IMG/VR virus record: IMGVR_UViG_3300048672_000029
Location: 1 to 50,548 of that record
DNA length: 50,548 nucleotides
Direction: 5' to 3' (one strand)
From: a virus
Lineage: Duplodnaviria; Caudoviricetes
The position numbers and the translations under genes were made by a program. The notes below the pieces were generated by a model. The model ran no database searches, had not been told where the DNA came from, and was given only the letters and a program-made list of their open reading frames with translations. Positions 1,697 to 36,676 of this stretch are shown piece after piece. How positions within the stretch are numbered: position 1 is the first letter of the stretch; each line of letters opens with the position of its first letter.

Positions 1697-1704
1697 AATT
1701 TAGG

Positions 1705-3162: not shown

Positions 3163-3978
3163 TTAACCAAATCGTTTAAAATAAACTTTAGGGTCTGAGA
3201 AGTCGTGTACAGACTTACCTTCTTTGTGAAGCTCTTCAACCATTTGATTAGCTCTTCGCTGTTCAGCTTGAAGCTCTTGTGATGTAGCACCAACTAAAGT
3301 AGGGGTCTTATTACGACCAACATTAGAATCGGTAGGAGGAACAAAGCTAGAGCTATTCACCGAGCTGGTCTGGGTAGACCCTTGTGTAGGTGGAGCAGCT
3401 TGCGTAATGCCGAGAGTCTTAAAAATTAATTTTGGATTTTTGGCTGCAAGAACATTAAGTTCTGCAACGCTCATCCCTAGTTCTGCGGCGGTCTCATTAA
3501 ACGTTTGTTCAGCTTTATCACCAAACTTTGCAACCAAAGCATTAACAACAGCTTTTTGATTGATCTTAGCTTGAGCAATTTGCTCACGTTGACTGAGGGT
3601 TCTATCTACTAATTCGGCAACAGTCTGTTCTGACAATGCTGCAGGTGGTTTGCCTGCTTCATCTGTCTTCTCAGTGAGGCTACGTATAGAATTCTCTAGT
3701 TCTGCAATTCGCTCTGCTTCTTTACGCAAACGTTCAATTTCCTTATCTTTCTGAGAGAGATCGTCTGTCAGTTTAGGAATGTATGTTTGTGCATTTTGCA
3801 AACCTACTAAAGCATCCTTTAGAGTTTTATACTTAGGCTCTCCACGTTCATTCTTGATTCCGGCTAACAGGTTTGTAAGCTCAGATTCTGTATTAACGTT
3901 GTCGGTATTGCCAGTACCGGAGGGTGGGAGGGTAGTCCCGGATTCTTGATTATCAAAAATACTTGTCTGGTCTGACAT
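3163..3978 (-). CDS. Capsid scaffolding protein
   Basis: 271 aa with coiled-coil and low-complexity linkers; between portal and MCP. Confidence 0.8.
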   Translation of the reverse strand: MSDQTSIFDNQESGTTLPPSGTGNTDNVNTESELTNLLAGIKNERGEPKYKTLKDALVGLQNAQTYIPKLTDDLSQKDKEIERLRKEAERIAELENSIRSLTEKTDEAGKPPAALSEQTVAELVDRTLSQREQIAQAKINQKAVVNALVAKFGDKAEQTFNETAAELGMSVAELNVLAAKNPKLIFKTLGITQAAPPTQGSTQTSSVNSSSFVPPTDSNVGRNKTPTLVGATSQELQAEQRRANQMVEELHKEGKSVHDFSDPKVYFKRFG

Positions 3979-3993
3979 GTATTGTTCTTTCTA

Positions 3994-4281
3994 TTAAATT
4001 GTTTGCGAAAGCTTGAAATGTAATTTTCTATGACAATTAGCGCATAGAACAATACATTTAGATATTTCTTTTTCTAGACGAGTCCAAGAAATGTTAACAG
4101 ACATACTACCTATAGAATAATCTTTAGTAGAAGAGTCTATATGATGTAAATCTAAAACACATGTTTCTTTTTCTCCGCATTCCTTACATTCTTGTGTAGC
4201 TTTCCATTCTCTAAACTTTTGTCTATTTTTATTTTGCCATTTTACACTTGCAAGTTTTTGAGAATCAGTACGTTTAGCCAT
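3994..4281 (-). CDS. Free-standing HNH endonuclease
   Basis: CKECG...DLHHID...LCANCHRKLH zinc-binding HNH signature. Confidence 0.85.
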   Translation of the reverse strand: MAKRTDSQKLASVKWQNKNRQKFREWKATQECKECGEKETCVLDLHHIDSSTKDYSIGSMSVNISWTRLEKEISKCIVLCANCHRKLHFKLSQTI

Positions 4282-4362
4282 TAGAATATATTAAATATTA
4301 ATTATACTTCTTAATCTCACTCGCTTCGCTCGTTCGTATTAAGATAATTTAGTAATAGCTAA

Positions 4363-4388
4363 TATCGGAAATTCACCTACTTCTCGAC
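4363..4388 (-). promoter_or_regulatory. Putative phage-sigma promoter GTCGA-N15-CCGATA
   Basis: One of four same-spacing copies; upstream of the HNH-scaffold-capsid genes. Confidence 0.65.
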
Positions 4389-4634
4389 AATTTTGTCAGA
4401 AATAAGTGAAATAACATCTAAAATAGCTCTTTCGTACCCTACAGCGTCCGCTTGGAGGTACGGCCAACCAGCCTTCTCGTAATTATCTTTACTACGTGAA
4501 AAGCTATTAGAAGCTCTAAGTTTATCGTCTAAAAGCTCTATGAGACGCTTTCGCATCCCATAGGAACTTATATAATCTTGCTTAACTTCTTTTGCTTTTT
4601 CTTCTGGAAGTCCAGAAATCCAACTTTGTTTCAT
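4377..4634 (-). CDS. Hypothetical protein, 85 aa (portal-linked)
   Basis: ATGA overlap with the portal stop; WPYLQADAVGYERA segment. Confidence 0.75.
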   Translation of the reverse strand: MKQSWISGLPEEKAKEVKQDYISSYGMRKRLIELLDDKLRASNSFSRSKDNYEKAGWPYLQADAVGYERAILDVISLISDKIVEK

Positions 4635-6397
4635 GCTGCTATAGGAGGTGATTGAGGATCAGCAACTGTATCTTCTACAGCTAAATCTTCCTGAGATTGC
4701 TTAGCAAGTCTTGTAGTTTCTTGTTGTTCAAACACTGCAATATTAGGTATAAACAAGGAATAGCGATTAAGACCAAGAATGTCTTCCAAAAGCTTAGATA
4801 GAGCAAGTCCACTAAGGTGAGGAGCAACAACTTTAGAGATAGGGCTATTAAAGATATTTGTTACGTTCTGTAGGAGTTGAGCTTGAGCTGCAAAATGTCT
4901 TGCACCAATAGGGCGTAATACACCAGAAGCTGTAATATCTTCCTTCGTAATCTTAAGAAATTTCTCTACACCTACAGCGTCATCCAGAGTACGAACAGTA
5001 TCTGTAGCGTCCATATTTCTACGAGAAGTTTCTAACATATCGTTAAGAGCTGGCTCTAAAAGCTCAATCTCTAGATTTGTAATCTTCTCTTGGAAAATAC
5101 GACTAGCTGCATTCTCTAAGCGTTGCACTTCAAAGGCTGTTTTCTCTCCTGCAGTGCGTACACCCATAGCTTCCCTAGGTGCCCCTGCATAAAGCTCCAT
5201 ACGCTGCTCTAAACGCTCTATAGACGTGTCTGCAGCCATTACCCACTGGACATTATGACCAAGCTCTGCAATATCTCCTGCTTCGTCTAAATGAATCTCT
5301 ACACCTGGCCCATAAGCAAACTCTTCCACTTCACCTTTAATAACTAAAGGAGGAAGAACAGCTAAATCCATAGCGTCTGCTTTAAGATTCTCTAAGTGGT
5401 CAATACGATATTGCATACCAACCAGATTATCTAGAGGACCCATAGCCCATAGATTATCAGGGCGTGTACGCCATCCACAATGATAAATAGGGGCATGACC
5501 GTTCCAAGATTGATATGCTTCGTCATTGATGACGTACATACGATCTACAACAGTAATTTTCCTACCTGTCAATGTTTCACCAGTTTTCTGGTTATGGATG
5601 TTACCATAGAAGGTTAGAAATTCTACATATCCACTTTGCAGATAATCATAATAGTTACCAAAACCATCTACCTGAATTCCTTCAGCTTTCTGCCAATCTT
5701 CGATACCGTATGCATTCATATGAGCATACATTTTATCTCGTTGTCTAAGAGCTTTCTTAAGGAATTTATTCTCTGGACTATTCTGAGCTAATAGGTGAAG
5801 CTCACCAAGCGTCTTTACGCTACGTATAATCTTAGGGCTGTCGTTAAATGAAGCAGCTAAAGGATTAAATACAATATCCATAGGACTAATCCTATGAAGC
5901 TTGGGACCAATATAGATTTGAATTTTCTTGTCATTATCATCTGTACGATATGACGATTCAAAATCTACAAAAGCAAAAGCATTACCATAATCAATGTAGT
6001 CGTAAACAAGCTTACTTGTCTCTGTCCTAAAGCCACCTTCTCTAGTCTTATTGCTCATATACGCTTCAATGGCTGTTACCTTTTGCTTGGTAGCATCATT
6101 CATCGTATAGGCTTCCCATTTCAACCAATTATCATTAGGGAAAAGAGCAGAAATGTAATTAGAATGCAGATTATCCCTAATCTGACATAGTTTTGGAAGG
6201 GTCGTACTATTCTTCCAAGGAAGAGTTTTGTTAGTAGTGGTAGTAGTATCCGTAGCAAAAATATAGTCTCTAAGCTCTTGCCATTGCTTAATCTTCGTAT
6301 CACGCTGACTATTCCAATTCTGCCACATATAGGAAATCTCTTTGCCAAAAGCATCTCCCTTGAATTCTGTACGTATTTCTAATGCCGATTGTGACAT
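4631..6397 (-). CDS. Portal protein
   Basis: 588 aa directly after TerL; podoviral portal motif KTAFEV. Confidence 0.9.
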   Translation of the reverse strand: MSQSALEIRTEFKGDAFGKEISYMWQNWNSQRDTKIKQWQELRDYIFATDTTTTTNKTLPWKNSTTLPKLCQIRDNLHSNYISALFPNDNWLKWEAYTMNDATKQKVTAIEAYMSNKTREGGFRTETSKLVYDYIDYGNAFAFVDFESSYRTDDNDKKIQIYIGPKLHRISPMDIVFNPLAASFNDSPKIIRSVKTLGELHLLAQNSPENKFLKKALRQRDKMYAHMNAYGIEDWQKAEGIQVDGFGNYYDYLQSGYVEFLTFYGNIHNQKTGETLTGRKITVVDRMYVINDEAYQSWNGHAPIYHCGWRTRPDNLWAMGPLDNLVGMQYRIDHLENLKADAMDLAVLPPLVIKGEVEEFAYGPGVEIHLDEAGDIAELGHNVQWVMAADTSIERLEQRMELYAGAPREAMGVRTAGEKTAFEVQRLENAASRIFQEKITNLEIELLEPALNDMLETSRRNMDATDTVRTLDDAVGVEKFLKITKEDITASGVLRPIGARHFAAQAQLLQNVTNIFNSPISKVVAPHLSGLALSKLLEDILGLNRYSLFIPNIAVFEQQETTRLAKQSQEDLAVEDTVADPQSPPIAA

Positions 6398-6405
6398 TTA
6401 TTTCC

Positions 6406-8016
6406 TTATCTGTAAGATACGCCACCAAAGCGGCTATTAAACTGTATTACATTGCTTTGAAGATCATTTAATCCTCTGGAACGTTTAGGTTTGATTGCAA
6501 TAGTTACTGCGGATGCCAGTGCATCCTTAATGTCGTCATGAGGAGGACGAGCAAGAATAAGTTCTTCTTCTAGAACATCTGTATATCCGCCTTTAAAATG
6601 CCAGATGGTCATGTTCTCATATTTATGCTCTAAAGCTGCAGCTATACGTTCTTGCTTATTACCTTCATTACGAGTAGGTCTATGTTCATCAATTGATAGG
6701 CTTAATCCCTCTTCTCGGAGTTTATCTTTAAGGTCTGAGACAATAACTGCTTGCGCGACTGTAACTTCCGCTCTGAGCTTTTTGAATTCCCAACGGGAGT
6801 GTAGCTCAGCAATGGATCGGAAGTAGTCACTAATTTTGTCGCTTTTGAATACCACAATGTCAAGTACATAAATATACCCTTCTGCATCTATACCAACAAC
6901 AACTATCGCTGTATTATCGCTTTTCTTACTTAAGGAGAAAGCGAAGTCTATAGCACCAAAGATATTAAGCTTATTGTTTTTATAATACCAATTTCCGTTT
7001 GTCTGCTTAAGAAACTTCTTATCGTAATATTGGAACTTATTCCTATCTATTCGATTACTTCCTGGATCATTAGGGTTGTTATAATACTGAGCGTGAAACT
7101 GTATTTTGTCAGTGTATTCTGCCCTAATACGAGAAAGAACTTGAGCATCAAAACCAAAGAACTTCTTATCGTCTCTCATAACCTTAGGCCAGATGAATAC
7201 ACCATCTACCTCTACAGCGTATTCTCTAATTTCCCATACAGGCTGTTGTTTAATCACTTCTCCTTCTTCGTTGTAAATGTCATACTCTTGGTCTCTCCAA
7301 GTAGCATACACATCTGAAGGGTGGTAGCGAGTACCACAGGCTAGCGTAAAACCACCAGCATTACGGATAGATGTAAACTGAGAAGCCTTCTTCATTACGC
7401 TATCTCGTCCATCTGCCGTATACGCGTTCTCAGGAACCACGATGTCATCTGAGATGATTACATCTGCGTGCCATCCTGTGGTGTTAGTAGTTAAGCCTGC
7501 TGTAGCAACAGTTTCATCCCGAATAGCTTCAGTCTTACGCTTCTCATGGTCAATAGAGAATTTACGCATAGACCACTTCTCTCGCTTTCCTTCTTGAGGA
7601 TTGATATATTCAGGGAAGTAACGATTGTAAATTGTACTACCTAGAATATTCTGAATAGCGTAGAGCTGTTTCTCAGCAAGCTCGGCTGTGGCCGAAAGAT
7701 AGAGAATAGTTATTTCAGGATGACGAGTGATAATCCAAGCTGCCCAAGTAGCCACCATATGGCTCTTTAAATGCCCTCGCGGGAGCATAATAAGCTTATT
7801 GGTGGACTGACCAACTCCTTGACCAAAAAGAGAATACTCTTCTAGCCATTTATAAAATTTCTTATGTATGTCACCATACATATAACCGGGATTTACTAAT
7901 CTAGCGAAGAAATACAAGTCATTGTAAGCTGTTTCTCTTAATTGTTTAGCCTCTTCAGGCATCTTCTCTAAGCGTAATTTAGCATCTCGCAGCCATGTAT
8001 CTACTTCTTTTACCAT
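6406..8016 (-). CDS. terL: Terminase large subunit
   Basis: Walker A-like LPRGHLKS, Walker B VIISDD, GTRYH coupling motif, nuclease IDFA...HDDIKDAL. Confidence 0.95.
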   Translation of the reverse strand: MVKEVDTWLRDAKLRLEKMPEEAKQLRETAYNDLYFFARLVNPGYMYGDIHKKFYKWLEEYSLFGQGVGQSTNKLIMLPRGHLKSHMVATWAAWIITRHPEITILYLSATAELAEKQLYAIQNILGSTIYNRYFPEYINPQEGKREKWSMRKFSIDHEKRKTEAIRDETVATAGLTTNTTGWHADVIISDDIVVPENAYTADGRDSVMKKASQFTSIRNAGGFTLACGTRYHPSDVYATWRDQEYDIYNEEGEVIKQQPVWEIREYAVEVDGVFIWPKVMRDDKKFFGFDAQVLSRIRAEYTDKIQFHAQYYNNPNDPGSNRIDRNKFQYYDKKFLKQTNGNWYYKNNKLNIFGAIDFAFSLSKKSDNTAIVVVGIDAEGYIYVLDIVVFKSDKISDYFRSIAELHSRWEFKKLRAEVTVAQAVIVSDLKDKLREEGLSLSIDEHRPTRNEGNKQERIAAALEHKYENMTIWHFKGGYTDVLEEELILARPPHDDIKDALASAVTIAIKPKRSRGLNDLQSNVIQFNSRFGGVSYR

Positions 8017-8525
8017 TAGGTTCCAGTGTTAAGTCTGATAATATCTGCCGTATAATCTTTATCTACACGAGCTTGAAAGCGTTTCTCATTCTGAACTTCT
8101 TCCTTAGAAGGTCGTCCAGCACCTCTATTAGCCCAACCTCTATCGGCTAGCCATTTAGAAGCTTGAATATTTCCTTTTTCAGCTTTCTTAATCATTTCTT
8201 TTGTAGCTCGGCTACGTAGCTTCAATTCCAGCTCCTCACGCCAATCTTCAATATGTGGGCGTAATAGTTTATTGTCATATAGACGTTGCCATTGTCTCCA
8301 ATTTAGGAGATATTTGGTAACAAAACTATATTCTGTTGGGTCTTCTTCTTCAAGATATAGACGCTTAAGAGAAGGGTATACCTTACCTTTGTAATCATGA
8401 TCTTGATCTTTTAACGTATAAATAGCAGCATCACTATACCCAACTTCTAAGAACATAGATTGGGTAATAGGGCGTCCACTAGTGTCTAGCATTAAAGCTT
8501 TATCTGGTACAAATTCTTCCATCAT
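8016..8525 (-). CDS. Terminase small subunit (putative)
   Basis: 169 aa immediately upstream of TerL; ASKWLADRGW...AGRPSK segment. Confidence 0.65.
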   Translation of the reverse strand: MMEEFVPDKALMLDTSGRPITQSMFLEVGYSDAAIYTLKDQDHDYKGKVYPSLKRLYLEEEDPTEYSFVTKYLLNWRQWQRLYDNKLLRPHIEDWREELELKLRSRATKEMIKKAEKGNIQASKWLADRGWANRGAGRPSKEEVQNEKRFQARVDKDYTADIIRLNTGT

Positions 8526-8968
8526 ATAAGAGCTACTTCAGCTTCTCTCCGTAATACAAGACCTTTTAATACTTTACCACCTCCTCTGTTCCACTTACGT
8601 AGTTCAGTAGGCACTTCGTCCCAATCTTCAGCTAAGATTTTCTTACGAAGGGTGGAGGTCTTGAGTCTTCCGCTTCCTAAATTAAAAGTAAAATCAATAA
8701 TAGCAGCTAAACGATTAGCATCTGTGATATTAGGGCAAAGCTTACGAACTGCAGGAAGATATACATAACGTATATGCCACATCAGTAATTGCTCTGCACG
8801 CTCTTTAGAGATCATAGGATCAGTTAAGGCTACCCTAGTACCATTCTCGTAATAAGTCGCCCCGTAGCCTATGCTAGGCACTCCTGCGGGGCATAGATAA
8901 GGACCTCTGTAAAGCCCTTCAAACTTACGACATAATATAGCTGCTATTTCGGCTGCTAGTTTATTCAT
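8522..8968 (-). CDS. Endolysin, GH24 lysozyme
   Basis: FEG...YLCPAGVPSIGYG, FTFNLG, GLVLRREAE motifs. Confidence 0.92.
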   Translation of the reverse strand: MNKLAAEIAAILCRKFEGLYRGPYLCPAGVPSIGYGATYYENGTRVALTDPMISKERAEQLLMWHIRYVYLPAVRKLCPNITDANRLAAIIDFTFNLGSGRLKTSTLRKKILAEDWDEVPTELRKWNRGGGKVLKGLVLRREAEVALI

Positions 8969-9432
8969 TTTCCTCTCTTAATTAATGCTCTATCTGCGAG
9001 ATATAAACCTAAAGCAGCAGATGCTACAGACCAGCTAGATTCGCTAAGAACAAATACTGAAAACTCTGAGAGAGTCATCATTACTATTGCCCAAGTAGCA
9101 ACTCCGGGACGTATTGTAGCATTCCAAGCATCAACCCAGCGTATTCCTGTTTGTTTAGTCGTAGATTCTGAGACAGTAGCCCAAGCTGCAGCTTCTATTT
9201 CACGAATGTGATTGTCTGCTTGAACAGTGATGGTTTTAATACCAAGGTCTGCTTGTACGCGAATAGCTTCAAGATTTCTTTCATGCTGTTTAGCATCAAT
9301 TCCTTCTTGAAGCTTAATTCTTTCTATCTCAAATTCATGATCTTGTTTCTTATTCCACCAAGAACTAATCTCTCCCCATAACATGCGGAAAGCTGTTCCT
9401 CCAAGGAAAGAAAATAGTGTGGAAAAAATCAT
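8965..9432 (-). CDS. Putative holin (GTA 3TM-holin-like)
   Basis: Hydrophobic N-terminus, charged helix, then IRP followed by two hydrophobic segments; adjacent to the endolysin. Confidence 0.55.
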   Translation of the reverse strand: MIFSTLFSFLGGTAFRMLWGEISSWWNKKQDHEFEIERIKLQEGIDAKQHERNLEAIRVQADLGIKTITVQADNHIREIEAAAWATVSESTTKQTGIRWVDAWNATIRPGVATWAIVMMTLSEFSVFVLSESSWSVASAALGLYLADRALIKRGK

Positions 9433-9683
9433 TTCTTATCTTCTTTTGTGTTTAAAGCATCTAAAATCTTATCTAGCTTCTCTAGAATAGTATTCTGAAA
9501 CTCTCTAAATTCTGTACGTTTTAGATATTCTCCTGCTATTAACACTTCAATATTTTGTAAGCGAATAGCAGTTTCTTTATGCGAATCCTTAACACCTTTG
9601 ACATCCTGCCAAAGCATATGAGAGACCCAACCAACTACGGTTAGGCCCACTCCCAATAGCCATTGAACCCAGCCCTCACTCAT
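9429..9683 (-). CDS. Single-TM membrane protein (holin/antiholin-like)
   Basis: N-terminal TM segment then coiled coil; in the lysis cassette. Confidence 0.55.
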   Translation of the reverse strand: MSEGWVQWLLGVGLTVVGWVSHMLWQDVKGVKDSHKETAIRLQNIEVLIAGEYLKRTEFREFQNTILEKLDKILDALNTKEDKK

Positions 9684-9828
9684 CTTTAGGAGCCTCCTCT
9701 GCAGGTTTCTCCAAAAGCTGATTGCCTATGTAATTTATTAGGTCATTAACTTCTTTATAAGGAAGCTCAATAAGTCCTCTAAAAATTAGAGAGATTTGTT
9801 GTTCAGTTAAGTTATTGATATTCTTCAT
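9676..9828 (-). CDS. Small protein, 50 aa (possible tail-fibre chaperone); not in the ORF track
   Basis: MKNINNLTEQQISLIFRGLIELPYKEVNDLINYIGNQLLEKPAEEAPKDE; ATGA overlap with the fibre stop; fills the gap exactly. Confidence 0.65.
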   Translation of the reverse strand: MKNINNLTEQQISLIFRGLIELPYKEVNDLINYIGNQLLEKPAEEAPKDE

Positions 9829-11459
9829 TGCGTTGCTGTCTTTGTATCTTTAAGATGTTGTACGATGCTTCCAATGATACACCAGAGAGGTCGCATATAA
9901 GTTTCGATATTGGAAGCACTATACGTACCTCCTAATCCTGAAGCAATATTACCTACTGCACAAGTTCCATTCCAATCAATATTAGCTACGGAGTTGAAAG
10001 CATTAACGTTAGAGCCTGTCCAGTTTACGAGGTTAGCAGACCATCCTAATGATGCTCCAAAAGCCTTGCTAGCCCCTGCTAAGGTCATCCCTGTAGCTCC
10101 AAAGCTTACGACAGAAACTGTCCCAGGACGTATTTCAATCGTAGGATCAGTGCTTCCTCTGTTAAACGTCTGTATATAACCTTTACCAGAAGCAATACCT
10201 ACGTCAAAACATTGATATACAGTGTCTGATGTAGAATTGTTACTAAAGAAAAGATTAGAGCTAGTTCCTGATCCACTAGGCTTAAACAATAGCGAAGTAG
10301 GGCTATTAGCTGTAGAAGATTGGAACGTAAAGAATGAAAGGAGGGAAGGACCAGTGCTAAAAGGGAATTTAAACCTTTGAGACGTAGTGGTAAATTCCAT
10401 ATCGCCAGCTACGTCTGCTCCAAATTTATTGAGCTTAGCTGTCTGATCTGAAACTACAGTTTCTGGAGGTCCCCAAGTACCTTTAATATTCGAGAAATCA
10501 ATGCTCCAAGTACCTAGATTATCTAAGAATACAGCAGCAAACATAAAGCCAGATTTAGAGAAATCTGCTCCTCCATTATGATCTAGAACATGCCCTGTAT
10601 CATTCTGAAGCTCCCAATATTTAGTTGTAGCTCCACTATACTTCCATAAACGATAACGAATATATTTAGCACTATTGTAATAAAGGACAGATTCTACTGA
10701 CACTTTATACCTAGCACCATCTACCAACAATTTATTACGAGGAGTTGTACTATCTGGAAATAAAAGCCTCTGAGTGCTAATACGTGTAGGGTCCCAAGTC
10801 TCTAGCATCATCACAGGAGTGAAGAGAGCTTGGTCTCCATTAAAACCACTCCAAGTAAGATTGCCCATAATAGCTCCATTACCTGTTACGGTAGTAGCTA
10901 CAGTAGCTGGGTCTTGTCTTAGAACAGTCGCTATATGAGCATTAGGATTATACAAGAAATAGTTATTACTAACAAACTCATATTCTAGCGTAAACTTACC
11001 AACTCCAGTATTAAATCCTGAAGGGTTGGTACTCATAAACTCTTGTCTACCATTAGGCGTAGAAGCATTCATAGTGAAATTGCTATACGTAGTGGTTACA
11101 GGAGTAGAAGCTGCTACTGTAGGAAGTTCTGCTAAAAGTTCAGCAATAGCTGCTTGTACATTAGTAGAGCTAATTGTTCCTACTGGAGTGAAGCTAATCA
11201 GGTTAGCTGTTGTAGCCCCTGATATAGCGTTTGTAACATCCTGTAGCCTAGCTGCTTCACTAGGGGAGAGAGGTTCTCGTAAATTATACAGACGAACACC
11301 ATTAACATCAACGTCTGTACGAAGTTGATTAGGTTCCCCTTCTGGGTTATTACGGTATAGAATTTTATTATTGAGTTCATCTTCTAGCTTGATAAAATTA
11401 TCGTTAATAGCTGCTAAATTAAATCCACTTGTTGGTTTCTGTAAAACCACTTTTGTCAT
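9825..11459 (-). CDS. Tail fibre / receptor-binding protein
   Basis: 544 aa; N-terminal anchor (AINDNFIKLEDELNNKILYRNNP...DVDVNG...AARLQDV) followed by a Ser/Thr/Gly beta-rich body; first gene of the late arm. Confidence 0.75.
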   Translation of the reverse strand: MTKVVLQKPTSGFNLAAINDNFIKLEDELNNKILYRNNPEGEPNQLRTDVDVNGVRLYNLREPLSPSEAARLQDVTNAISGATTANLISFTPVGTISSTNVQAAIAELLAELPTVAASTPVTTTYSNFTMNASTPNGRQEFMSTNPSGFNTGVGKFTLEYEFVSNNYFLYNPNAHIATVLRQDPATVATTVTGNGAIMGNLTWSGFNGDQALFTPVMMLETWDPTRISTQRLLFPDSTTPRNKLLVDGARYKVSVESVLYYNSAKYIRYRLWKYSGATTKYWELQNDTGHVLDHNGGADFSKSGFMFAAVFLDNLGTWSIDFSNIKGTWGPPETVVSDQTAKLNKFGADVAGDMEFTTTSQRFKFPFSTGPSLLSFFTFQSSTANSPTSLLFKPSGSGTSSNLFFSNNSTSDTVYQCFDVGIASGKGYIQTFNRGSTDPTIEIRPGTVSVVSFGATGMTLAGASKAFGASLGWSANLVNWTGSNVNAFNSVANIDWNGTCAVGNIASGLGGTYSASNIETYMRPLWCIIGSIVQHLKDTKTATQ

Positions 11460-11744
11460 ATTTTTTTCCTAAAAATTTTTACACGTTTACGACAAGATAT
11501 TCTACTAGAGAACTCCGTTCCTATGTAACGCTCCTGCGGAGCAGTAATTACCTATATGTGGCAAAGCCACGTTATCGCTTTACAAGCTCATCTATACATT
11601 ATGCTTCTTTACACCTGCTCATAATGGTCAGGAGTTATTCTCAAGAGGCATGTCATAATTTCTTGGAGAAATTTAGAAGGTGCAATGCACCTCTTTCTCC
11701 AAAAGTAAACCCCTGCATACCCCTCAAGCATAAGCTCAAGCTTA

Positions 11745-11763
11745 TATGAGAATCATTATCATT
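11745..11763. promoter_or_regulatory. Fur-box-like inverted repeat
   Basis: TATGAGAATCATTATCATT matches the 9-1-9 Fur box AATGATAATCATTATCATT at 17/19 positions. Confidence 0.5.
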
Positions 11764-11961
11764 TTGATCCAATCATCATATGAATAGACTAGATGGTTAC
11801 AATGCATTCTCCCCATTCTATTCATATACTGTCCAGTCACAATCTAGCCTTATTGTTCACATTATGTACTGTTTATGCGGGTTTCCGGACTATTGTGCCG
11901 TAAGGCACGTAGTAACAATTCAATATACATTATAGTTATATATCCTCATATGCTATACACA

Positions 11962-11978
11962 TTGGCATAACATATGCT
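11962..11978 (+). promoter_or_regulatory. sigma54-type -24/-12 site
   Basis: TTGGCATAACATATGCT: GG-N10-GC. Confidence 0.5.
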
Positions 11979-11998
11979 TACATGACATAAATGGCATT

Positions 11999-12053
11999 AC
12001 ATTATTGTCACATTTACATTATTGTCACATTCTCCCTGACATTATTGTCACAT
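11999..12053 (+). repeat. Three 15-bp direct repeats ACATTATTGTCACAT
   Basis: Exact copies at 11999-12013, 12016-12030 and 12039-12053. Confidence 0.9.
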
Positions 12054-12227
12054 ACGATAGAACATCTCTTATATAAGAAACCTATCAGAATCTCTGGGAG
12101 AATGCCGTTTAAACACGTTTTAAGTCACCTATCAGACGCCTAACGGCATTTATGCTATACACCCTGCCTGATATAGGTTTAATGCCTTATAGAGGCTAAA
12201 ATCTAGGAAAGTGTAACATTTCTATAG

Positions 12228-12244
12228 TTGGCACAGTCGTTGCA
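12228..12244 (+). promoter_or_regulatory. sigma54-type -24/-12 site
   Basis: TTGGCACAGTCGTTGCA, near-consensus to YTGGCACGRNNNTTGCW. Confidence 0.7.
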
Positions 12245-12292
12245 AGTATAGAAACGTCGGGGCAACAAACTTGTTCAGACAGGATAGGTAAG

Positions 12293-12309
12293 TTGGCATG
12301 ATAGCTGCT
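12293..12309 (+). promoter_or_regulatory. sigma54-type -24/-12 site
   Basis: TTGGCATGATAGCTGCT: GG-N10-GC. Confidence 0.6.
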
Positions 12310-12586
12310 TATATATCCGGGTCAGACAGTCATCGTACAGTCTGACAGTGTTCATTAAAAATTAGCTGTGTATGCGTTTATCAGTAGATGTTATGCATCT
12401 ATGGTTTAGCTTTAAGCGCTTTAGGATTGTCGTCCAGACTATGCCATTGATTCCAGATTGTGGAATCCAGGCAGGGTGCTGCTCGTCCGAAAAGTTAATA
12501 AAGAAAATCATAGTATGCCATGCATAACGCAATGGGTAAACAGGCACGATTTAATCGTAAATCGTGATATATCAGTACACAGTGAA

Positions 12587-12599
12587 TTCTTTAACAATT
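12587..12599 (+). promoter_or_regulatory. boxA-like antitermination signal
   Basis: TTCTTTAACAATT versus rrn boxA GCTCTTTAACAATT; preceded by a hairpin at 12545-12566. Confidence 0.45.
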
Positions 12600-12873
12600 C
12601 AATTACATAGAGTATCGCGGAATTAACTATTAAAAAGTAGCTGCGCTATCATGCTTTATTCTCCCTTACGTGTATGACAATCACACTATACGTAACAGAA
12701 TAGAGAATGGTAAACCAGTGATGAATAGCATTAAATGGCCGAATACATCTATAGATTTGCTAACCTATTGTTAATTCGATAGTATGTAAATCCATGCCCA
12801 TGTGACAGATGGGCATTAGTGTACATACTGTACAAACCCGCCTAATTCTGGGCAAACCTTATCGGAGATAATT

Positions 12874-13437
12874 ATGCCTTTCAAAGCAAATGATTTTGTT
12901 GCTTCTTTCGTTGCAACACTGGAAACCCTGACACAATCGGAAAAGATTACAAAAGCAACCCTTCAAACCCTTAGCCGTGATGTGCTTTATGCATTGCACT
13001 GTGATGGTGACACAAAGGGGGATATTGGGTATATCAATCGCACCATTGCCGTGCTTACGCCAGTAAACAAGAAAGCATTCATTCTGTTCTGCAAGGAGTT
13101 CACCGGGTTCATTATGAACAATGAGGGGAATGCTTTCCTTAAGAAATCCAAGAAGCATTACGAAGAAGTGTCACTAAAGGCACTGGCATTCTTGGATGAC
13201 CCAATGAATAACCTTTGGTCATGGGCTGATCGCAACATTGAAATGGAAAAGAAAGAATTCTCTCTTGATGCTGTGACACACACTATCGAAGTGCTGCTTA
13301 AGAAAGCGGCAAAGAACAACATCAGTCAGGCTGATTTCCTGCGTGCTGTAATGAAGGGCGGTATTGATTCCGATTCCATCATTGCGATTATGGATGATCT
13401 GGGTTTTGAAGTGGCTGATGAAAAGGAAGGCGAATAA
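12874..13437 (+). CDS. Early hypothetical protein, 187 aa
   Basis: GGAG SD upstream; first gene of the + arm. Confidence 0.85.
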   Translation: MPFKANDFVASFVATLETLTQSEKITKATLQTLSRDVLYALHCDGDTKGDIGYINRTIAVLTPVNKKAFILFCKEFTGFIMNNEGNAFLKKSKKHYEEVSLKALAFLDDPMNNLWSWADRNIEMEKKEFSLDAVTHTIEVLLKKAAKNNISQADFLRAVMKGGIDSDSIIAIMDDLGFEVADEKEGE

Positions 13438-13542
13438 GAATCAGTTTGTAAAACAATAAACTGTAGAGCATTAGAGATAGTGCTCTATGGTTTAGTGTTT
13501 CCTCAACCCGTATCAATAGATACATATTTTCAGGAGTTTTCC

Positions 13543-13851
13543 ATGTCCGCTACACACAAGATCAACACTGCTATGCGTAACGCTATCATCAATGTCAGGG
13601 TGATGCGAAGCGCAGAGAAAGCAGAGAACACGGAAGCATCGAAGGCTTGTATCAATTACCTTATGAATGCTGAAAAGAAGGGGAGTGGTGTTATCAATCG
13701 TCCTGACTGGAATGCTAATCTGTCATTCAAGACAGCAAAGCTTTTACATGCTCCATTGTTCACCAATGGAAATGACAAGAATGGGAATGCTTTGCCTTGG
13801 AATTTCCATCAGGGCAAGAACAATGCATACGATTGTATGGTAATGGGTTGA
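13543..13851 (+). CDS. Early hypothetical protein (start re-called at ATG 13543)
   Basis: CAGGAG SD before the MSATHK start; in frame with ORF 13480..13851. Confidence 0.75.
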   Translation: MSATHKINTAMRNAIINVRVMRSAEKAENTEASKACINYLMNAEKKGSGVINRPDWNANLSFKTAKLLHAPLFTNGNDKNGNALPWNFHQGKNNAYDCMVMG

Positions 13852-13857
13852 TTAATA

Positions 13858-13945
13858 GCGAGAGTGGCGAAACTAGGTATACGCAAGAGATTTAAAATCT
13901 CTCGATAGTAATATCATACGGGTTCGATTCCCGTCTCTCGCACCA
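13858..13945 (+). tRNA. tRNA-Leu(TAA)
   Basis: Acceptor stem GCGAGAG/CTCTCGC; anticodon arm AGAGA-TTTAAAA-TCTCT; long variable arm; GGTTCGATTCCC; encoded CCA. Confidence 0.95.
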
Positions 13946-13949
13946 ATAT

Positions 13950-14024
13950 ACGCCATTAGCTTAATGGATAAAGCTATGATCTTCTACATCATTGATATAG
14001 GTTCGATTCCTGTATGGCGTACCA
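13950..14024 (+). tRNA. tRNA-Arg(TCT)
   Basis: Acceptor ACGCCAT/ATGGCGT; anticodon arm ATGAT-CTTCTAC-ATCAT; T-loop TTCGATT; CCA. Confidence 0.95.
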
Positions 14025-14028
14025 ATAA

Positions 14029-14104
14029 GCAATCTTAGCTCAGTGGTTAGAGCAGGGTACTCATAATGCCTTGGTCATTGGTTCAAATCCAATAGATTGC
14101 ACCA
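14029..14104 (+). tRNA. tRNA with CAT anticodon (Ile2-like or Met)
   Basis: Acceptor GCAATCT/AGATTGC; loop CTCATAA; D arm, G27-U43 pair and variable loop resemble E. coli ileX; CCA. Confidence 0.9.
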
Positions 14105-14119
14105 ACAATAGGAGAAATT

Positions 14120-14287
14120 ATGTCTTTAGGACAGATAAATCTTATTCGTTATCAAGTAAGGGATGCTACATTGCGAGCTATCCCTTTTTCTTTTTCTGTT
14201 TTATATCGTCCATTAAGGACAGACAAAAGGAGCTATCATGCCTCAACCAACCAAACCGACTGTACGTTACACACCTTCCAGATTTGA
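14120..14287 (+). CDS. Possible small protein, 55 aa
   Basis: AGGAG SD before ATG 14120; overlaps the next ORF. Confidence 0.4.
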   Translation: MSLGQINLIRYQVRDATLRAIPFSFSVLYRPLRTDKRSYHASTNQTDCTLHTFQI

Positions 14288-14441
14288 TTACATTGAGGAA
14301 GGCAAGAGTGCTAACGTAATTCCAATTGACCATACATCAGAGCTTGTATCGAACAAATGTCTTGTTCATACATCTCCAGTAATCAAGAAACATCCTAATG
14401 GAGATTTTGAAACCAGGAATTCTTTCTATCAAAAGTTCTAA
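14238..14441 (+). CDS. Hypothetical protein, 67 aa
   Basis: AAGGAG SD; HTSPV...FETRNSFY segment typical of small phage proteins. Confidence 0.75.
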   Translation: MPQPTKPTVRYTPSRFDYIEEGKSANVIPIDHTSELVSNKCLVHTSPVIKKHPNGDFETRNSFYQKF

Positions 14442-14443
14442 GC

Positions 14444-14562
14444 CTTAAGTATTCTTAAGGTTCACTTCGTTCACTCTTAAGGTATATTAGCATTATTCTC
14501 ACTCGCTTCTTAAGGTTCGCTAATCGCTCACTCTTAAGATAATCTAATATATAATACTTAAG
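14444..14562. repeat. Array of six CTTAAG palindromes in an intergenic gap (candidate origin)
   Basis: CTTAAG starts at 14444, 14454, 14476, 14509, 14533 and 14557. Confidence 0.85.
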
Positions 14563-14572
14563 GTATTCCTTA

Positions 14573-14598
14573 TATCGGTTTTTCAGTCGTTTCTCGAC
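14573..14598 (-). promoter_or_regulatory. Putative phage-sigma promoter GTCGA-N15-CCGATA, leftward
   Basis: GTCGAGAA-N5-TGAA-N3-CCGATAT is shared with the 4363-4388 copy. Confidence 0.6.
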
Positions 14599-14632
14599 TA
14601 AATTCTTTTAAATTGTTACAAAATAGAGTAAA

Positions 14633-15760
14633 ATGATGCGTAAATTTGAAGATGGTGACTTGGTTAAGCTGGTTTCCACTCGTAAAGATAACAATCGTGC
14701 TCATTATATTCCAGCAATGGAGCATTTGTTAGGAAAAACATCAATTGTTGAATATGTAGAACATTGGGGTGGTCCTATTATTAGGATGAAATGCCCGGAA
14801 GATATTGATGATCGTGGCTATATCAATTTTGATGAGCTTTGCTTTAGGCGTATACGTAAAGCTATTAACGTCAAGAAAAAAGATGACGTAAAGGTAGAAG
14901 TTCCTAAGGTAGAGGAAGTAAAACCTATTGCTTTAAAAGAAGGAAACGATCCTACTGGATTACGTGCCTACTTTACCAAATCTATGGGAGATGCTGATCC
15001 AGCAACATGCTCATATGCAATTAAGCTTGCAAATGGAAAGATACGTGAGCAGAAAAGAGATGTATGCCATGCACGTCTTCCTTTACAAACTGGTGATTAT
15101 TTGGGGCATAAGCAAGAGAAAGACCCTATTGCTGTAGTGTTGCATTTAAAAGGACATTACAAGAATGCACAGCCAGACCTTAAAGAAACATACGTTAAGT
15201 ATGTAGATTACATGATTAATCGTAGCCCTTGGGCACCAATTCATTTGGTGAAAGATGCTCATGACGCAATTGCTAATTGCGCCTCTCTAGACGTATCACG
15301 TCCATTGTATGAATTGATGGGTGCTGCTGTATCTCTGCGTGAAGCTAGTGAATTTCCTAGCAATTTCCGTAGCTTTAAGAAAGCTTTAGAGCTTGGCTAT
15401 TCTGAGCATACAGCATATTTGATGACATGCTGCTTTATCACTAGAGAATCAGGTGATTCTTGCAGGACATACATCACCAACGGTCATAAGGTTATGCATA
15501 CTGACAATAAGGTGCCAGCTATCATCAATTTCTTTACGAAAGGTTATAAGCCAGCAAAAGAAGCTTACAACAAAGGTGGTATAGATAATGGTATTAACAA
15601 GTATATGATGACCATATTTGAAGGAAGTTCTTTCAAGAATGCCGTTGATGCTTTGGCTCCTTTAAATGATTGGGCTTTTGGTACAAATGGAGTGGTAGAT
15701 AACAAAGGCTTTATTTCTGTTGCGGATATGTTTGAGAAATTTTTTAAGAAAGCAAAATGA
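14633..15760 (+). CDS. Hypothetical protein, 375 aa, heading the amide-ligase cluster
   Basis: Long ORF translationally coupled (ATGA) to the class I amidotransferase. Confidence 0.85.
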   Translation: MMRKFEDGDLVKLVSTRKDNNRAHYIPAMEHLLGKTSIVEYVEHWGGPIIRMKCPEDIDDRGYINFDELCFRRIRKAINVKKKDDVKVEVPKVEEVKPIALKEGNDPTGLRAYFTKSMGDADPATCSYAIKLANGKIREQKRDVCHARLPLQTGDYLGHKQEKDPIAVVLHLKGHYKNAQPDLKETYVKYVDYMINRSPWAPIHLVKDAHDAIANCASLDVSRPLYELMGAAVSLREASEFPSNFRSFKKALELGYSEHTAYLMTCCFITRESGDSCRTYITNGHKVMHTDNKVPAIINFFTKGYKPAKEAYNKGGIDNGINKYMMTIFEGSSFKNAVDALAPLNDWAFGTNGVVDNKGFISVADMFEKFFKKAK

Positions 15761-16368: not shown

Positions 16369-16516
16369 TATAAATTACATCTTCGGTTATTACGCTTATA
16401 TGCGTAAGAATCTTGTGTCTAAGCGCCCTTGGGCACATTTCCGTAAGAAGGGGCCTGGTCGTAAGCATCAGCAAGGACAGCCATTGACTAAGGGAGAGCG
16501 TAATGGAAAAGCATGA
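16361..16516 (+). CDS. Small basic protein, 51 aa; not in the ORF track
   Basis: AAGGAG SD; MFNINYIFGYYAYMRKNLVSKRPWAHFRKKGPGRKHQQGQPLTKGERNGKA. Confidence 0.6.
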   Translation: MFNINYIFGYYAYMRKNLVSKRPWAHFRKKGPGRKHQQGQPLTKGERNGKA

Positions 16517-16670
16517 ACAATTATTTGTTCCTAAAGCAGATTACAATAGAGATATTAAATGGAAAAAAGATTCTAAACAAAAATGTTTAGCTCAATCCAT
16601 TGGATATTTCTATATGGACGAAGAAGAAAGAAGTTGGTATTGGTTATTTAAATATGAAAGTGGTGAGTAA
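16503..16670 (+). CDS. Small protein, 55 aa; not in the ORF track
   Basis: GGAG SD; MEKHEQLF...DEEERSWYWLFKYESGE; TAATG coupling to the ATP-grasp gene. Confidence 0.65.
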   Translation: MEKHEQLFVPKADYNRDIKWKKDSKQKCLAQSIGYFYMDEEERSWYWLFKYESGE

Positions 16671-24762: not shown

Positions 24763-25257
24763 ATGGATAAAAAATATTTAGAAAGTTTGCTAAGCTATGA
24801 CCCTAATACAGGTTTATTTACATGGAAAATAAATAAAGGAAGGGTTTCAGCAGGGTCTGTATGTAATAATACACAAGATCAAGGTTATAAAAAAGTGAAT
24901 ATAGATGGGAAATCCTACTATTTACACAGGTTAGTTTTTCTTTTAGAGGATGGGTTCTTTCCTAATGTAGTTGATCATATCAATGGGGATGTGTCAGACA
25001 ACAGAAGAATTAATTTACGAAAAACTTCTAGAGCAGGTAATAGACGCAACTCTAAAGTATCCAGTAACAACATCTCCGGTGTTAAAAATGTGCATTATAA
25101 CAAAAAGACCTCTTCTTATTCTGTAGCTATGCATGTAAACGGTGTTAGAAAAAGTTTTGGTAGTTTTAGTACCCTTGAAAAAGCAAAACAGGTAGCAGAT
25201 AAAGCTAGAGAAAATAACCATAAAGAATTTGCTTATAATGTACATTCCCATAATTGA
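24763..25257 (+). CDS. HNH homing endonuclease with AP2-like DNA-binding domain
   Basis: YDPNTGLFTW, HRLVF, VDHINGDVSDNRRINLR, NNISGVKNV...FGSF...A. Confidence 0.92.
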   Translation: MDKKYLESLLSYDPNTGLFTWKINKGRVSAGSVCNNTQDQGYKKVNIDGKSYYLHRLVFLLEDGFFPNVVDHINGDVSDNRRINLRKTSRAGNRRNSKVSSNNISGVKNVHYNKKTSSYSVAMHVNGVRKSFGSFSTLEKAKQVADKARENNHKEFAYNVHSHN

Positions 25258-25711
25258 ACAACACTTCATTGAGAATAGGCGTAAGCTTGTTAAGAAGATG
25301 GGGTTTAGGGCAGGAACTCCAGAAGATGCTGAAGATGTTGTACAAGAAGCTTATGCCCGAGCTATTAAATATCAAAAGAGTTTTGATGGAACTAATATAG
25401 ACAGATGGTTCCATACAATTCTTAACAATGTTCTTAAAGAGTTTAAGAATACACAAAAAGGATATTCTACAGTTGAATACGAAGAAGAAGAAGACCAAGC
25501 TGTAGAATATATCTACCCAACTAGGGTGATGGCTGAGATTTATGAAATGATTGATAAGCGTCCAGTAGTTCAGAAAGAAATACTTACGCTCTTCTTCACT
25601 CAAGAATATTCAGCTAAAGATATTAGCAACATCTTGCCCTCTTCATATTCCCAAATACATCAAGTGATACAAAGGTTCAGAAATGAACTAAAGGAAATCT
25701 ATCGTGAGTAA
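25238..25711 (+). CDS. ECF-like RNA polymerase sigma factor
   Basis: Region 2 (EDAEDVVQEAY...IDRWFHTILNN) and region 4 HTH (YSAKDISNIL...IHQVIQRFR); about 157 aa. Confidence 0.85.
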   Translation: MYIPIIEQHFIENRRKLVKKMGFRAGTPEDAEDVVQEAYARAIKYQKSFDGTNIDRWFHTILNNVLKEFKNTQKGYSTVEYEEEEDQAVEYIYPTRVMAEIYEMIDKRPVVQKEILTLFFTQEYSAKDISNILPSSYSQIHQVIQRFRNELKEIYRE

Positions 25712-36672: not shown

Positions 36673-36676
36673 TTGT

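Follow-up and report, generated by a model that had tools for sequence, protein, structure and literature searches.

The window analysed here, 50,548 nt long, is the whole genome (~50.4 kb) of a podophage. Its minus strand carries hairpin-forming sequences at 4.3, 11.5 and 14.5 kb (Table 1). Every sequence that the initial annotation described is present as given, save that the first hairpin, H1, whose sequence was correctly given, ends at 4344 and not at 4345. At the A locus (4.3 kb), an HNH endonuclease gene stands as a 'cargo' behind a promoter-like motif, P_A, and H1; P_A itself overlaps the stop codon of an 85-aa gene at 4377-4634. The slot taken by the HNH gene holds tRNA genes or nothing in relatives: the gene is missing at the A junction in 35/35 IMG/VR relatives and also in the relative L036, and in a contig of run X5 the sequence passes from 3963 to 4358. 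The first late gene, at 9825-11459, encodes the tail fibre, and its leader contains the three mini-hairpins at 11.5 kb. Hairpins H2 and H3 at the B locus (14.5 kb) are set in AT-rich sequence between transcription units with no co-oriented gene behind; their promoter-like motif, P_B, points away from a 375-aa gene (14633-15760, plus strand), and the locus runs antisense into ORF67 and tRNAs. A PHROG scan identified a T7-type primase-helicase and a DNA polymerase, and no RNA polymerase among the 64 ORFs scanned. Hairpins resembling intrinsic terminators are found downstream on the late strand, for instance at 1645-1704 after the capsid operon.

Table 1. Genes, promoter-like motifs and hairpins at the loci studied (positions in the window).
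Feature	Position	Strand	Sequence or basis
HNH endonuclease gene, 95 aa	3994..4281	-	PHROG HNH families, E = 1.8e-25
H1	4309..4344	-	TCTTAAT / A / C-GA-AC-GA-GC-GAA-GC-GA-GT-GA-G / ATTAAGA
P_A, promoter-like two-block motif	4362..4388	-	exact motif; kept at equivalent junction in L036
Mini-hairpin	11510-11520	-	GAAC-GGA-GTTC
Mini-hairpin	11530-11542	-	GCTCC-GCA-GGAGC
Mini-hairpin	11558-11570	-	GTGGC-TTT-GCCAC
Larger predicted fold of B element	14443..14563	-	11-bp outer stem around H2 + H3
H3	14454..14481	-	CTTAAG / A / GT-GA-AC-GAA-GT-GA-AC / CTTAAG
H2-H3 linker, conserved	14482..14508	-	includes AAGCGAGTGAGA, 13-mer shared with H1
H2	14509..14538	-	CTTAAG / A / GT-GA-GC-GATTA-GC-GA-AC / CTTAAG
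P_B, promoter-like two-block motif	14572..14598	-	exact motif; conserved in L037
Phage sigma factor, 160 aa, candidate reader of two-block promoters	25229..25711	+	PHROG 1740; Pfam Sigma70_r2

The hairpins at A and B do lie downstream of the promoter candidates: the exact two-block motif, GTCGAGAA-N12-CCGATAT, occurs in the window only as P_A and P_B, each on the minus strand. Allowing three mismatches or fewer gave 4 matches against 0.85 expected, a number reached in 1/100 shuffles. Degenerate versions that keep the 12-nt gap were found in L038, L039 and other relatives, and the equivalent of P_B in the relative G005 has a motif in common with that genome's own A locus. The fixed-gap motif is found upstream of H1, of H2/H3, in L036 to L039 and at both G005 loci; in some distant relatives a consensus sigma-70 promoter replaces it at the A junction. 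The motif is probably a promoter read by the host RNA polymerase with the phage's ECF/FliA-like sigma factor. Against PDB this protein matched ECF sigmas and FliA weakly; 6/6 complete genomes examined have a homologue. That the phage carries such a factor implies that the host polymerase is used.

H1 consists of a 7-bp closing stem, a bulged A, two tandem-GA units and a C-GAA-G triloop, contains GCGAAGC, and parses as a zipper of 12 Watson-Crick pairs and 2 GA units. The 13-mer TCTCACTCGCTTC that the 4.3 and 14.5 kb loci were said to share occurs only at 4315 and 14497 in the window, and ATTATCTTAA stands upstream of H1 and of H2 alike. Against L036, the A locus keeps its promoter and has its hairpin region wholly replaced. 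The B locus is under strong constraint. From 14454 to 14602 B is 94.6% identical to L037 (375-aa gene, 68.7%; ORF67, 75.5%), with H2 and H3 unchanged and 3 substitutions in the linker; the H3 core also occurs in L058 and L124. The outer stem of the larger fold is not conserved, its 3' arm being replaced in L037. At 11.5 kb, all three mini-hairpins are identical in L036, in G002 the loops are kept and the stems carry compensatory changes, a similar set is found in G004, and G003 has a GA-zipper hairpin at the equivalent position.

Statistics drawn from this genome alone were mixed. Generic tandem-GA hairpins showed no enrichment genome-wide (13 vs 9.5 ± 3.2 in 30 shuffles), fold z-scores were -1.8 for H1 and -1.4 for the 11.5 kb pair, and the 14.5 kb region, at -5.0, folds equally well on the opposite strand (-6.2). 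CTTAAG is at chance over the genome (23 copies, 23.4 expected), with 6/23 copies clustered within 14444-14562. It is the comparison with relatives that shows the hairpins to be more than a chance occurrence.

Alignment with these relatives showed that the hairpins form a conserved, covarying family, which we named the 'G·A zipper'. Its members have a closing stem of 6-7 bp, one bulged base (usually A), and then the zipper, in which Watson-Crick dinucleotide steps alternate with tandem G·A/A·G pairs up to a triloop that is mostly GNA. They are always on the late-gene strand, a few tens of bases downstream of the two-block motif. A covariance model, R1, was built from a seed of four copies in which 39/39 pair cells are Watson-Crick and 6/10 pairs change on both sides, a covariation score that 0/500 shuffles reached. 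Searching the loci of 89 further relatives with R1 gave 26 matches at E <= 1, all 26 on the plus (late-gene) strand in a slot ~1 kb upstream of the capsid gene; H1 occupies the same slot, about -1198 from the capsid gene start. H2 scored 46.9 bits (E = 4e-9) and H3 39.6 bits. Among the 14 distinct match sequences, 134/134 pair cells are Watson-Crick and 9/10 pairs show double changes; again no shuffle out of 500 reached the score, and slid controls were only 20-42% paired. None of the 134 cells is a G·U pair, a count biased by fitting the alignment to a model trained without G·U.

A rule-based scan independent of R1 covered the subclade with capsids at least 75% identical (60 distinct loci). 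The slot upstream of the capsid gene matched in 33/60, against 7/53, 7/73 and 5/70 in equal-sized control regions and 5/60 on the opposite strand. Triloops of GAA or GTA occur in 14 of the 29 catalogued hairpins, and C-G closure likewise in 14. What follows the hairpin varies: the HNH gene in the window, a holin-like gene in G003, antisense sequence at B, and tRNA genes in L036, L038, L039 and many other relatives, the link to tRNA genes being weak (24/38 vs 11/28, p = 0.08). The element therefore seems tied to the promoter and not to one gene. The initial annotation had proposed a strand-specific structured element coupled to the promoter and a candidate for an undescribed cis-acting system. 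The first is upheld by the architecture and by compensatory stems in many relatives on the late-gene strand, and for the second no Rfam family matches the zipper hairpins and a literature search found no description of them. We conclude that these short, very stable hairpins constitute a genuine control element, conserved in this phage and dozens of relatives and so far undescribed.

As to what the element does, we lean slightly toward a promoter-proximal leader acting in nascent RNA, made from promoters for which the phage's own sigma factor is the probable reader. Host polymerase carrying this factor would start at the two-block motif, and within its first 10-100 nt the transcript would fold into the hairpins, a cis-acting leader element that would work on the transcribing polymerase directly or recruit a factor of phage or host to it; the complex so modified would continue through structured, untranslated or terminator-containing stretches downstream. 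Promoter-proximal RNA hairpins that act on the elongating polymerase as antiterminators are known in HK022 put and lambda nut. Processive antitermination of this kind, in which the polymerase is modified to read through terminators, is the mechanism we tentatively prefer, as a possibility only. Like put and nut, the zipper element is one or two stem-loops early behind a phage promoter, whatever gene follows, with action on the polymerase being proposed here; unlike them, it shows no likeness in sequence or size, no boxA and no Rfam match, and its conserved part is the internal G·A zipper and not the loop. Where tRNAs follow, tRNA processing would cut the hairpin from the downstream mRNA, which favours a co-transcriptional role. 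A role in 5' protection or processing of the RNA seems rather unlikely, and one as a binding site for a regulatory protein is doubtful. Against the RNA reading, the B locus, antisense and without a gene of its own, is odd for a leader, and the counts of loops and pairs suit DNA as well as RNA, or better. No RNA run was found to contain the phage.

The main rival places the same hairpins in DNA, and we regard it as possible, if unlikely. Firing of the promoter would displace the non-template strand, which would fold into hyperstable G·A/GNA mini-hairpins that either keep an R-loop open or mark a site for priming or helicase loading, so that B, and perhaps other loci, would be a transcription-activated replication origin or single-strand initiation signal. 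Leader RNA and single-stranded DNA have identical letters and are inseparable by sequence; we lean to RNA. The chemistry suits DNA: H1 contains GCGAAGC, C-GNA-G loops, as in the d(C-GNA-G) mini-hairpin, occur in 14/29 catalogued hairpins, and G·U pairs are nearly absent. The literature behind the initial annotation holds up: hyperstability is described for d(GCGAAGC), and mini-hairpins are known from phage origins and from N4 promoters (PMC13037366, PMC4496689). The RNA counterpart melts far lower, at 39 C for r(GCGAAAGC) against 76.5 C for the DNA, and the d(GCGNAGC)/d(GCGNNAGC) hairpins of Hirao and colleagues are reported at the complementary-strand origins of G4, St-1 and alpha3 and at ssiA of RSF1010 (PMC13037366). 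These share with the zipper an identical apex, C-GNA-G with a sheared G·A pair, strand specificity and a place in phage control regions (PMC13037366). In the zipper, by contrast, between one and four tandem G·A units, a bulged base and a covarying closing stem are added to the apex, and the whole stands behind a promoter in a double-stranded DNA podophage.

The B locus also suits an origin, being without a gene to lead into, the most conserved stretch of its neighbourhood, and AT-rich between transcription units; the phage has its own primase-helicase and DNA polymerase. Origins of the T4 oriF/ori(uvsY) type consist of a promoter and a downstream unwinding element with a persistent R-loop. B fits this order of promoter and AT-rich structured element, for which no downstream gene is needed, although the T4 elements are not G·A hairpins. 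Against an origin, the A locus evolves like a leader, with its promoter kept and its hairpin region replaced, the element precedes tRNA or late genes in most relatives, and GC skew tracks gene orientation without singling out B.

It is improbable that the conservation of B comes, partly or wholly, from plus-strand early sigma-70 promoters of the 375-aa gene operon, with the complements of the hairpin cores as -35-like hexamers and the AT-rich spacers as -10 hexamers. Such a match (TTCACT-N16-TATATT, 9/12) lies at 14461-14488, two more were seen by eye further on (TTCGCT-N16-GATAAT and CTCACT-N17-TATAAT), and a plus-strand terminator after the tRNAs, at about 14172-14215, implies that transcription has to start afresh from another promoter upstream of 14633. 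Promoter-like matches, however, are not more frequent than in shuffles (42 vs 34.1 ± 6.0), and neither the compensatory closing-stem changes nor the A-locus family, whose complement would drive antisense transcription, are explained; at best these promoters co-exist with the hairpin element.

Very unlikely, too, is that the CTTAAG palindromes are double-stranded operators for a dimeric phage regulator and their hairpin potential incidental. There are six within 119 nt (spacings of 10, 22, 33, 24 and 24 nt), five of them kept in L037, and closing stems in relatives are often CTTAAG-like (CTGAAG, CATAAG, CTCAAG, CTTAGT). Yet stems also swap to unrelated, still paired sequences (GTGAGG/CCTCAC, GTGTAG/CTACAC, TTAATC/GATTAA), the two half-sites lie 15 to 42 nt apart depending on zipper length, and the two strands are not symmetric in the conserved G·A core.

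The parallel with N4 promoters drawn in the initial annotation finds no support as membership. N4 early promoters likewise lie in an upstream control region and have small hairpins with a 3-nt purine loop, the required G:C closure and unusual stability on just one of the strands (PMC4496689), and our 11.5 and 14.5 kb hairpins lie upstream of plus-strand early genes on their template strand; however, the helices, measured from loop to base, exceed the 5-7 bp of N4, and the -8G/+1C positions are not preserved at 11510-11520 (PMC4496689). That a single-subunit polymerase delivered with the virion reads such template-strand hairpins to transcribe the plus-strand early genes can hardly be sustained, because no virion RNA polymerase was found among the 64 ORFs (neither Pfam nor PDB gave a match to the 1562-aa virion protein, which in the Atlas lies nearest to clusters named internal virion protein D), the sigma factor points to the host enzyme, and H1 and all A-locus members, wrong in strand and position, would drive antisense transcripts.

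Tandem sheared G·A pairs next to a bulge within a hairpin are familiar from RNA motifs such as the kink-turn, whose bulge is of 3 nt. The zipper likewise combines tandem G·A pairs and a bulge in one hairpin, but its bulge is a single base, two Watson-Crick pairs away from the G·A pairs, and its G·A units are symmetric and repeated, a layout different from that of the 3-nt bulge.

The same 127 bases open and close the window, and the record is a single contig; it follows that the window is a whole phage genome of ~50.4 kb, circularly assembled. Its distant kin are Citrobacter phage CVT22, Klebsiella phages and Vibrio phage ICP2, matched in terminase and portal only, at 71-80% nucleotide identity (megablast). 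No RNA polymerase family was found among the 64 ORFs with PHROGs, a sequence-level search that a very divergent enzyme could escape. For the 1562-aa virion protein, the nearest Atlas clusters are labelled 'internal virion protein D' (a lead only), and neither Pfam nor PDB gave a sequence match. A peptide-pattern search found no IMG/VR relative of the 375-aa early protein. Behind its gene, at 15757-21356 (plus strand), lie genes for a glutamine amidotransferase, an ATP-grasp (RimK-like) protein, a GlmS-like aminotransferase, a COOH-NH2 ligase and an amidoligase, which look like a peptide- or metabolite-modifying module.

Gene blocks, promoter-like motifs, hairpins and other features of the window
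Feature	Coordinates	Strand	Remarks
Late and structural genes	11459 down to 1, then 50548 down to 36677	-	
Early and replication genes	12874-36603	+	
A locus, promoter-like motif	4362-4388	-	
A locus, hairpin H1	4309-4344	-	
HNH endonuclease gene	3994-4281	-	free-standing, 95 aa; slot of one to four tRNA genes or nothing in relatives; without Shine-Dalgarno
B locus, promoter-like motif	14572-14598	-	
B locus, hairpin H2	14509-14538	-	
B locus, hairpin H3	14454-14481	-	
11.5 kb site, three mini-hairpins	11510-11570	-	leader of first late gene
Three tRNA genes	13858-14104	+	
Sigma factor	25229-25711		160 aa; PHROG 1740; Pfam Sigma70_r2; weak PDB matches to ECF sigmas and FliA
Further HNH-type genes (three)	24763-25257, 29809-30186, 35392-35976		
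Group I intron	35809-36090	+	Rfam RF00028, 51.4 bits; carries HNH/EndoVII-like ORF; interrupts ribonucleotide reductase large-subunit gene (34084-35289, 35392-35976, 36085-36603)
Strong intrinsic-terminator-like hairpin	1645-1704	-	downstream of capsid operon
Strong terminator-like hairpin	13457-13494		past 187-aa gene
Strong terminator-like hairpin	14172-14215	+	past tRNA genes
Strong bidirectional terminator-like hairpin	36604-36676		between convergent blocks

The hairpin sequences listed in the initial annotation were all recovered on the minus strand where it had placed them, and the 13-mer it described as common to the ~4.3 kb (A) and ~14.5 kb (B) loci occurs at those two places only. An exact two-block motif of 27 nt, GTCGAGAA-N12-CCGATAT, is common to its two promoter candidates and unique to them within the genome. 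H1 begins 17 nt and H2 33 nt past this motif. The hairpins are G·A zippers: a closing stem, a bulged base, and Watson-Crick dinucleotide steps alternating with tandem G·A, usually capped by a GNA triloop. Taken from the window genome alone, the case for them is not compelling. Tandem-GA hairpins of the simple type show no genome-wide enrichment over shuffled sequence, H1 and the 11.5 kb pair fold barely better than shuffles, and the 14.5 kb region folds strongly but on both strands. The hexamer CTTAAG is present genome-wide at its chance count, with six copies clustered within 119 nt. At the gathering threshold, Rfam returned only tRNAs and one group I intron; in E-value mode it gave tRNAs and otherwise nothing notable over 11300-14700, and noise only (E ≥ 0.23) over 14420-14640. 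Neither intergenic region has a look-alike in the GenBank phage collection, where the best matches span 21-33 nt at E values no better than 0.03. No RNA run was listed as containing the phage. Contigs of four runs over 3900-14800 gave almost zero cover of 14456-14800 and yielded no hairpin variation that could be used. Two other identities were discarded: a three-way-junction fold of the B element, whose 11-bp outer stem is absent in the close relative L037, and an intrinsic terminator (G+C-rich hairpin plus U run), as H1, H2 and H3 are without a T run and lie outside the terminator-like sites.

The relatives carry the argument. At the A-locus junction, two contigs with terminases 76-77% identical to that of the window (L038 and L039) have a degenerate two-block motif followed by hairpins of the same plan, in which the closing stems GTGAGG/CCTCAC and GTGTAG/CTACAC take the place of CTTAAG/CTTAAG. 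In an unfitted four-sequence seed alignment, all 39 pair cells are Watson-Crick and both sides have changed in 6/10 pairs. R1, a covariance model of the hairpin, recovered from 380 kb its own seeds and the L037 copies only (next match E = 2.4). When 89 further loci had been gathered through a capsid-protein alignment, R1 matched in them 26 times at E ≤ 1; without exception these hits are on the strand of the late genes, some 1 kb upstream of the capsid gene. Their 14 distinct sequences, aligned by fitting to the model (which favours pairing), are paired in 134/134 cells, with compensatory double changes in 9/10 pairs; their covariation score was reached by none of 500 shuffles, and slid controls were 20-42% paired. 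Since R1 and a second model, R2, both miss variants lacking the standard closing stem (H1, the hairpin of the close relative L036, and the A loci of complete genomes G002-G004), a rule-based scan was run beside them. It matched the slot in 33 of the 60 distinct subclade loci (capsid at least 75% identical), compared to 7/53, 7/73 and 5/70 in control regions, 5/60 on the opposite strand and 5/29 in more distant relatives. Members repeat the unit, tandem G·A next to two Watson-Crick pairs, one to four times (four in L075). Of 29 distinct catalogued hairpins, of which a few are likely false, GAA or GTA loops occur in 14, C-G closure in 14, and A as the bulged base in 16/24. The equivalent intergenic region of 35 distant relatives contains no tandem-GA hairpin.

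These data show that the hairpin is conserved, strand-specific and covarying, that its position is linked to a conserved promoter-like motif, and that it occurs independently of the following gene. The initial annotation had proposed a strand-specific structured element coupled to a promoter, to be judged by covariation in the intergenic regions of related phages, and the relatives bear it out. As a natural family with covariation, it indicates that selection clearly acts on the folded single strand. With ARAGORN, tRNA genes were located ~10-60 nt behind the hairpin in 18 hairpin-bearing loci checked. A strict link between hairpin and tRNA genes is unsupported, the hairpin being present in 24/38 tRNA-bearing loci vs 11/28 without tRNAs (all distinct subclade loci; p = 0.08).

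The two blocks keep a constant 12-nt gap in the window and its relatives, and precede the hairpin in 11 of 12 loci inspected by eye, with no formal score. Their second block is reminiscent of FliA-type -10 elements. All six complete genomes (the window and G001-G005) encode a sigma-factor homologue, with 43-54% identity in the five relatives. From sequence, we infer that the two-block motif would be a promoter for this phage sigma factor. A palindrome of the type ATAC-CTTAAG-TAT lies a few bases past the motif in the window (14553-14564, minus strand), L036 (8394-8407), G003 (near 10100) and the relative L009 (about 6075), and may mark the 5' end of the transcript or a binding site. Some distant relatives have at the A-locus junction a perfect sigma-70 consensus, TTGACA-N17-TATAAT, and no two-block motif (L019, 2803-2856; L027, 4827-4887), suggesting that the capsid operon is transcribed by different polymerase holoenzymes in different lineages.

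The two loci differ in their history among the closest relatives, a metagenome contig (L036) and a genome-bin contig (L037) whose DNA is ~80-86% identical to the window; the B locus of the L036 lineage was taken from L037. Where the 85-aa gene meets the scaffold gene, L036 retains the promoter motif; homology ends directly after it and restarts only at the scaffold ribosome-binding site. In the window this interval holds H1 and the HNH endonuclease gene; in L036 it holds tRNA-Thr, tRNA-Trp and another leader, whose hairpin reads GT-GA-GTAAC-TTTA-GTTAC-GA-AC. The HNH gene is missing from this junction in 35/35 more distant IMG/VR relatives, and positions 3963 and 4358 are joined in a contig of run X5. 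The B element behaves in the opposite way to the replaced A leader: 14454-14602 is kept at 94.6% identity in L037, and H2 and H3 are identical in every letter. Identity is 68.7% for the 375-aa gene next to it and 75.5% for ORF67 (50% and 81% as proteins). The B arrangement is present in 2/6 complete genomes, plus L037. In G005, the second hairpin locus lies 9.2 kb from that genome's own A locus, on the same strand, diverging from a homologue of the 375-aa gene as in the window, and it carries the same genome-specific version of the promoter motif as the A locus. Several lineages have a conserved block resembling AAATACTCTCAAA immediately 3' of the hairpin, and it is seen at A and B loci alike (L037, 2909-2921; L039, 8623-8636; L130, which is the B locus of G005; L084, 3889-3902).

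At the 11.5 kb site, all three small hairpins before the first late gene are identical in L036. G002 retains the loops TTT, GCA and GGA on compensatorily altered stems: GTGGC/GCCAC becomes GTGTGC/GCACAC, GCTCC/GGAGC becomes GTCCC/GGGAC, and GAAC/GTTC becomes GTAC/GTAC. This covariation was read off the raw sequences with no formal count, because MAFFT misaligns hairpins of unequal length. A similar set, including GTCC-GAA-GGAC, is found in G004, and G003 has a true G·A-zipper hairpin at the equivalent position, right upstream of a small late gene. Between the late and early blocks, which diverge here, a 1.4 kb intergenic region (11460-12873) wholly contains no ORF of at least 60 aa and is 84-86% identical in L036 and L037. 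In both relatives, as in the window, it includes ATGTGACAATAATGT as three direct copies (near 12000-12060 of the window, read on the minus strand); it may serve as a control region, an origin or a genome end.

We lean, with modest confidence, toward the hairpin acting as an RNA leader. The phage sigma factor would read the two-block motif as a promoter, and the hairpin would form in the nascent RNA. Where tRNA genes come next, their processing would cut the hairpin off the downstream message, which would make a purely mRNA-protective role less attractive and a co-transcriptional one more so. Such a role would be put/nut-like antitermination or anti-pausing; antitermination is the specific mechanism we favour most, tentatively and at a low probability. 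Known put and nut sites have family-specific features, boxA/boxB or the two-stem put fold. The window element has none of these, its architecture is different, and Rfam gives no match over it at the gathering threshold or at E < 0.2. Two observations speak against an RNA leader: the B locus runs into antisense sequence, and C-GNA-G triloops with few G·U pairs are the chemistry of DNA mini-hairpins, whose RNA versions have much lower stability according to PMC13037366. The non-template DNA strand and the RNA carry the same letters.

The main rival, which we consider rather improbable, is that the displaced non-template DNA strand folds, and that B in particular is a transcription-fired origin or priming signal. 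We would be equally doubtful of a bolder proposal, that the zipper is a new class of promoter-coupled single-strand element, either a protein-independent RNA that reprograms polymerase or a hyperstable displaced-strand fold that locks an R-loop as a transcription-fired origin or priming signal. Duplex operator sites and, at B, overlapping early promoters of the sigma-70 type on the plus strand are minor alternatives. Weakest are N4-type hairpin promoters, a parallel at which the initial annotation had hinted and which fails here: no virion polymerase was found, the strand logic is wrong at the A locus, where hairpins would drive antisense transcription, and the conserved N4 positions are not kept.

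As described in PMC4496689, the N4 promoter hairpin has a 5-7 bp stem and a 3-nt loop with a central purine, 5' G and 3' A, closed by G:C; it is located upstream of early genes, in the template strand. Its positions -10G, -8G and +1C are conserved, and the start is 11 nt from the loop centre. Two of the 11.5 kb hairpins have this apex and stems partly in range (GCTCC-GCA-GGAGC, 5 bp; GAAC-GGA-GTTC, 4 bp), and the zippers have the same apex type on helices that exceed 5-7 bp. By our own count, 11510-11520 has A at -8 and +1 instead of G and C, and the +1 of H2 and H3 would be inside the stem. The DNA mini-hairpin d(GCGNAGC), C-G-N-A-G between G-C pairs, is matched by GCGAAGC at 4322-4328 (minus strand), and the C-GAA-G, C-GCA-G and C-GGA-G loops of the window are of this type. 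Kink-turns consist of a canonical stem, a 3-nt bulge and then tandem sheared G·A pairs. The zipper has instead a single bulged base, with two Watson-Crick pairs between it and the G·A pairs, which rules out this identity.

Runs of tandem sheared G·A pairs with a GNA triloop as cap are known mainly from oligonucleotide biophysics, a few origins and the N4 promoters. With no Rfam family match and no description of the element found in a literature search conducted mostly at abstract level, the word 'undescribed' in the initial annotation stands: GNA mini-hairpins and tandem sheared G·A pairs are familiar as components, and a natural, covarying, promoter-coupled family made of them appears to be undescribed. 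For the ICP2/CVT22-like podophages, a large and uncultured group, it provides a concrete cis-element: a putative phage-specific promoter plus a hairpin whose chemistry is unusual. Whether it acts as RNA or displaced DNA would bear on transcription-replication coupling in such phages, and the hairpin could serve synthetic biology as a compact, very stable structural module.

The zipper core reaches further. A 16-letter core, AGTGARCGAAGYGAAC, matches at least 117 IMG/VR stretches (a raw count with no background model), 80 of which were taken as loci. Among the matches listed for these 80 loci, the two variable core letters are complementary in 77/87 (G/C 54, A/T 23), the remainder being G/T (7) and A/C (3), and several of the non-complementary matches fall in one conserved coding region. 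About 16 of the 74 distinct complementary cases among the matches listed cap a longer predicted hairpin, among them one that resembles a terminator (L154) and, in L153 and L188, long perfect inverted repeats. This suggests that the zipper module is more general than this clade, and hints that the 16-nt core is a general structural module of phage genomes. Among the matches listed, the core is seen in many unrelated viral contigs (L148-L227, IMG/VR), some of them 100-300 kb long, and the long perfect inverted repeat that it caps in L153 occurs twice in that contig, at 1840 and 3450.
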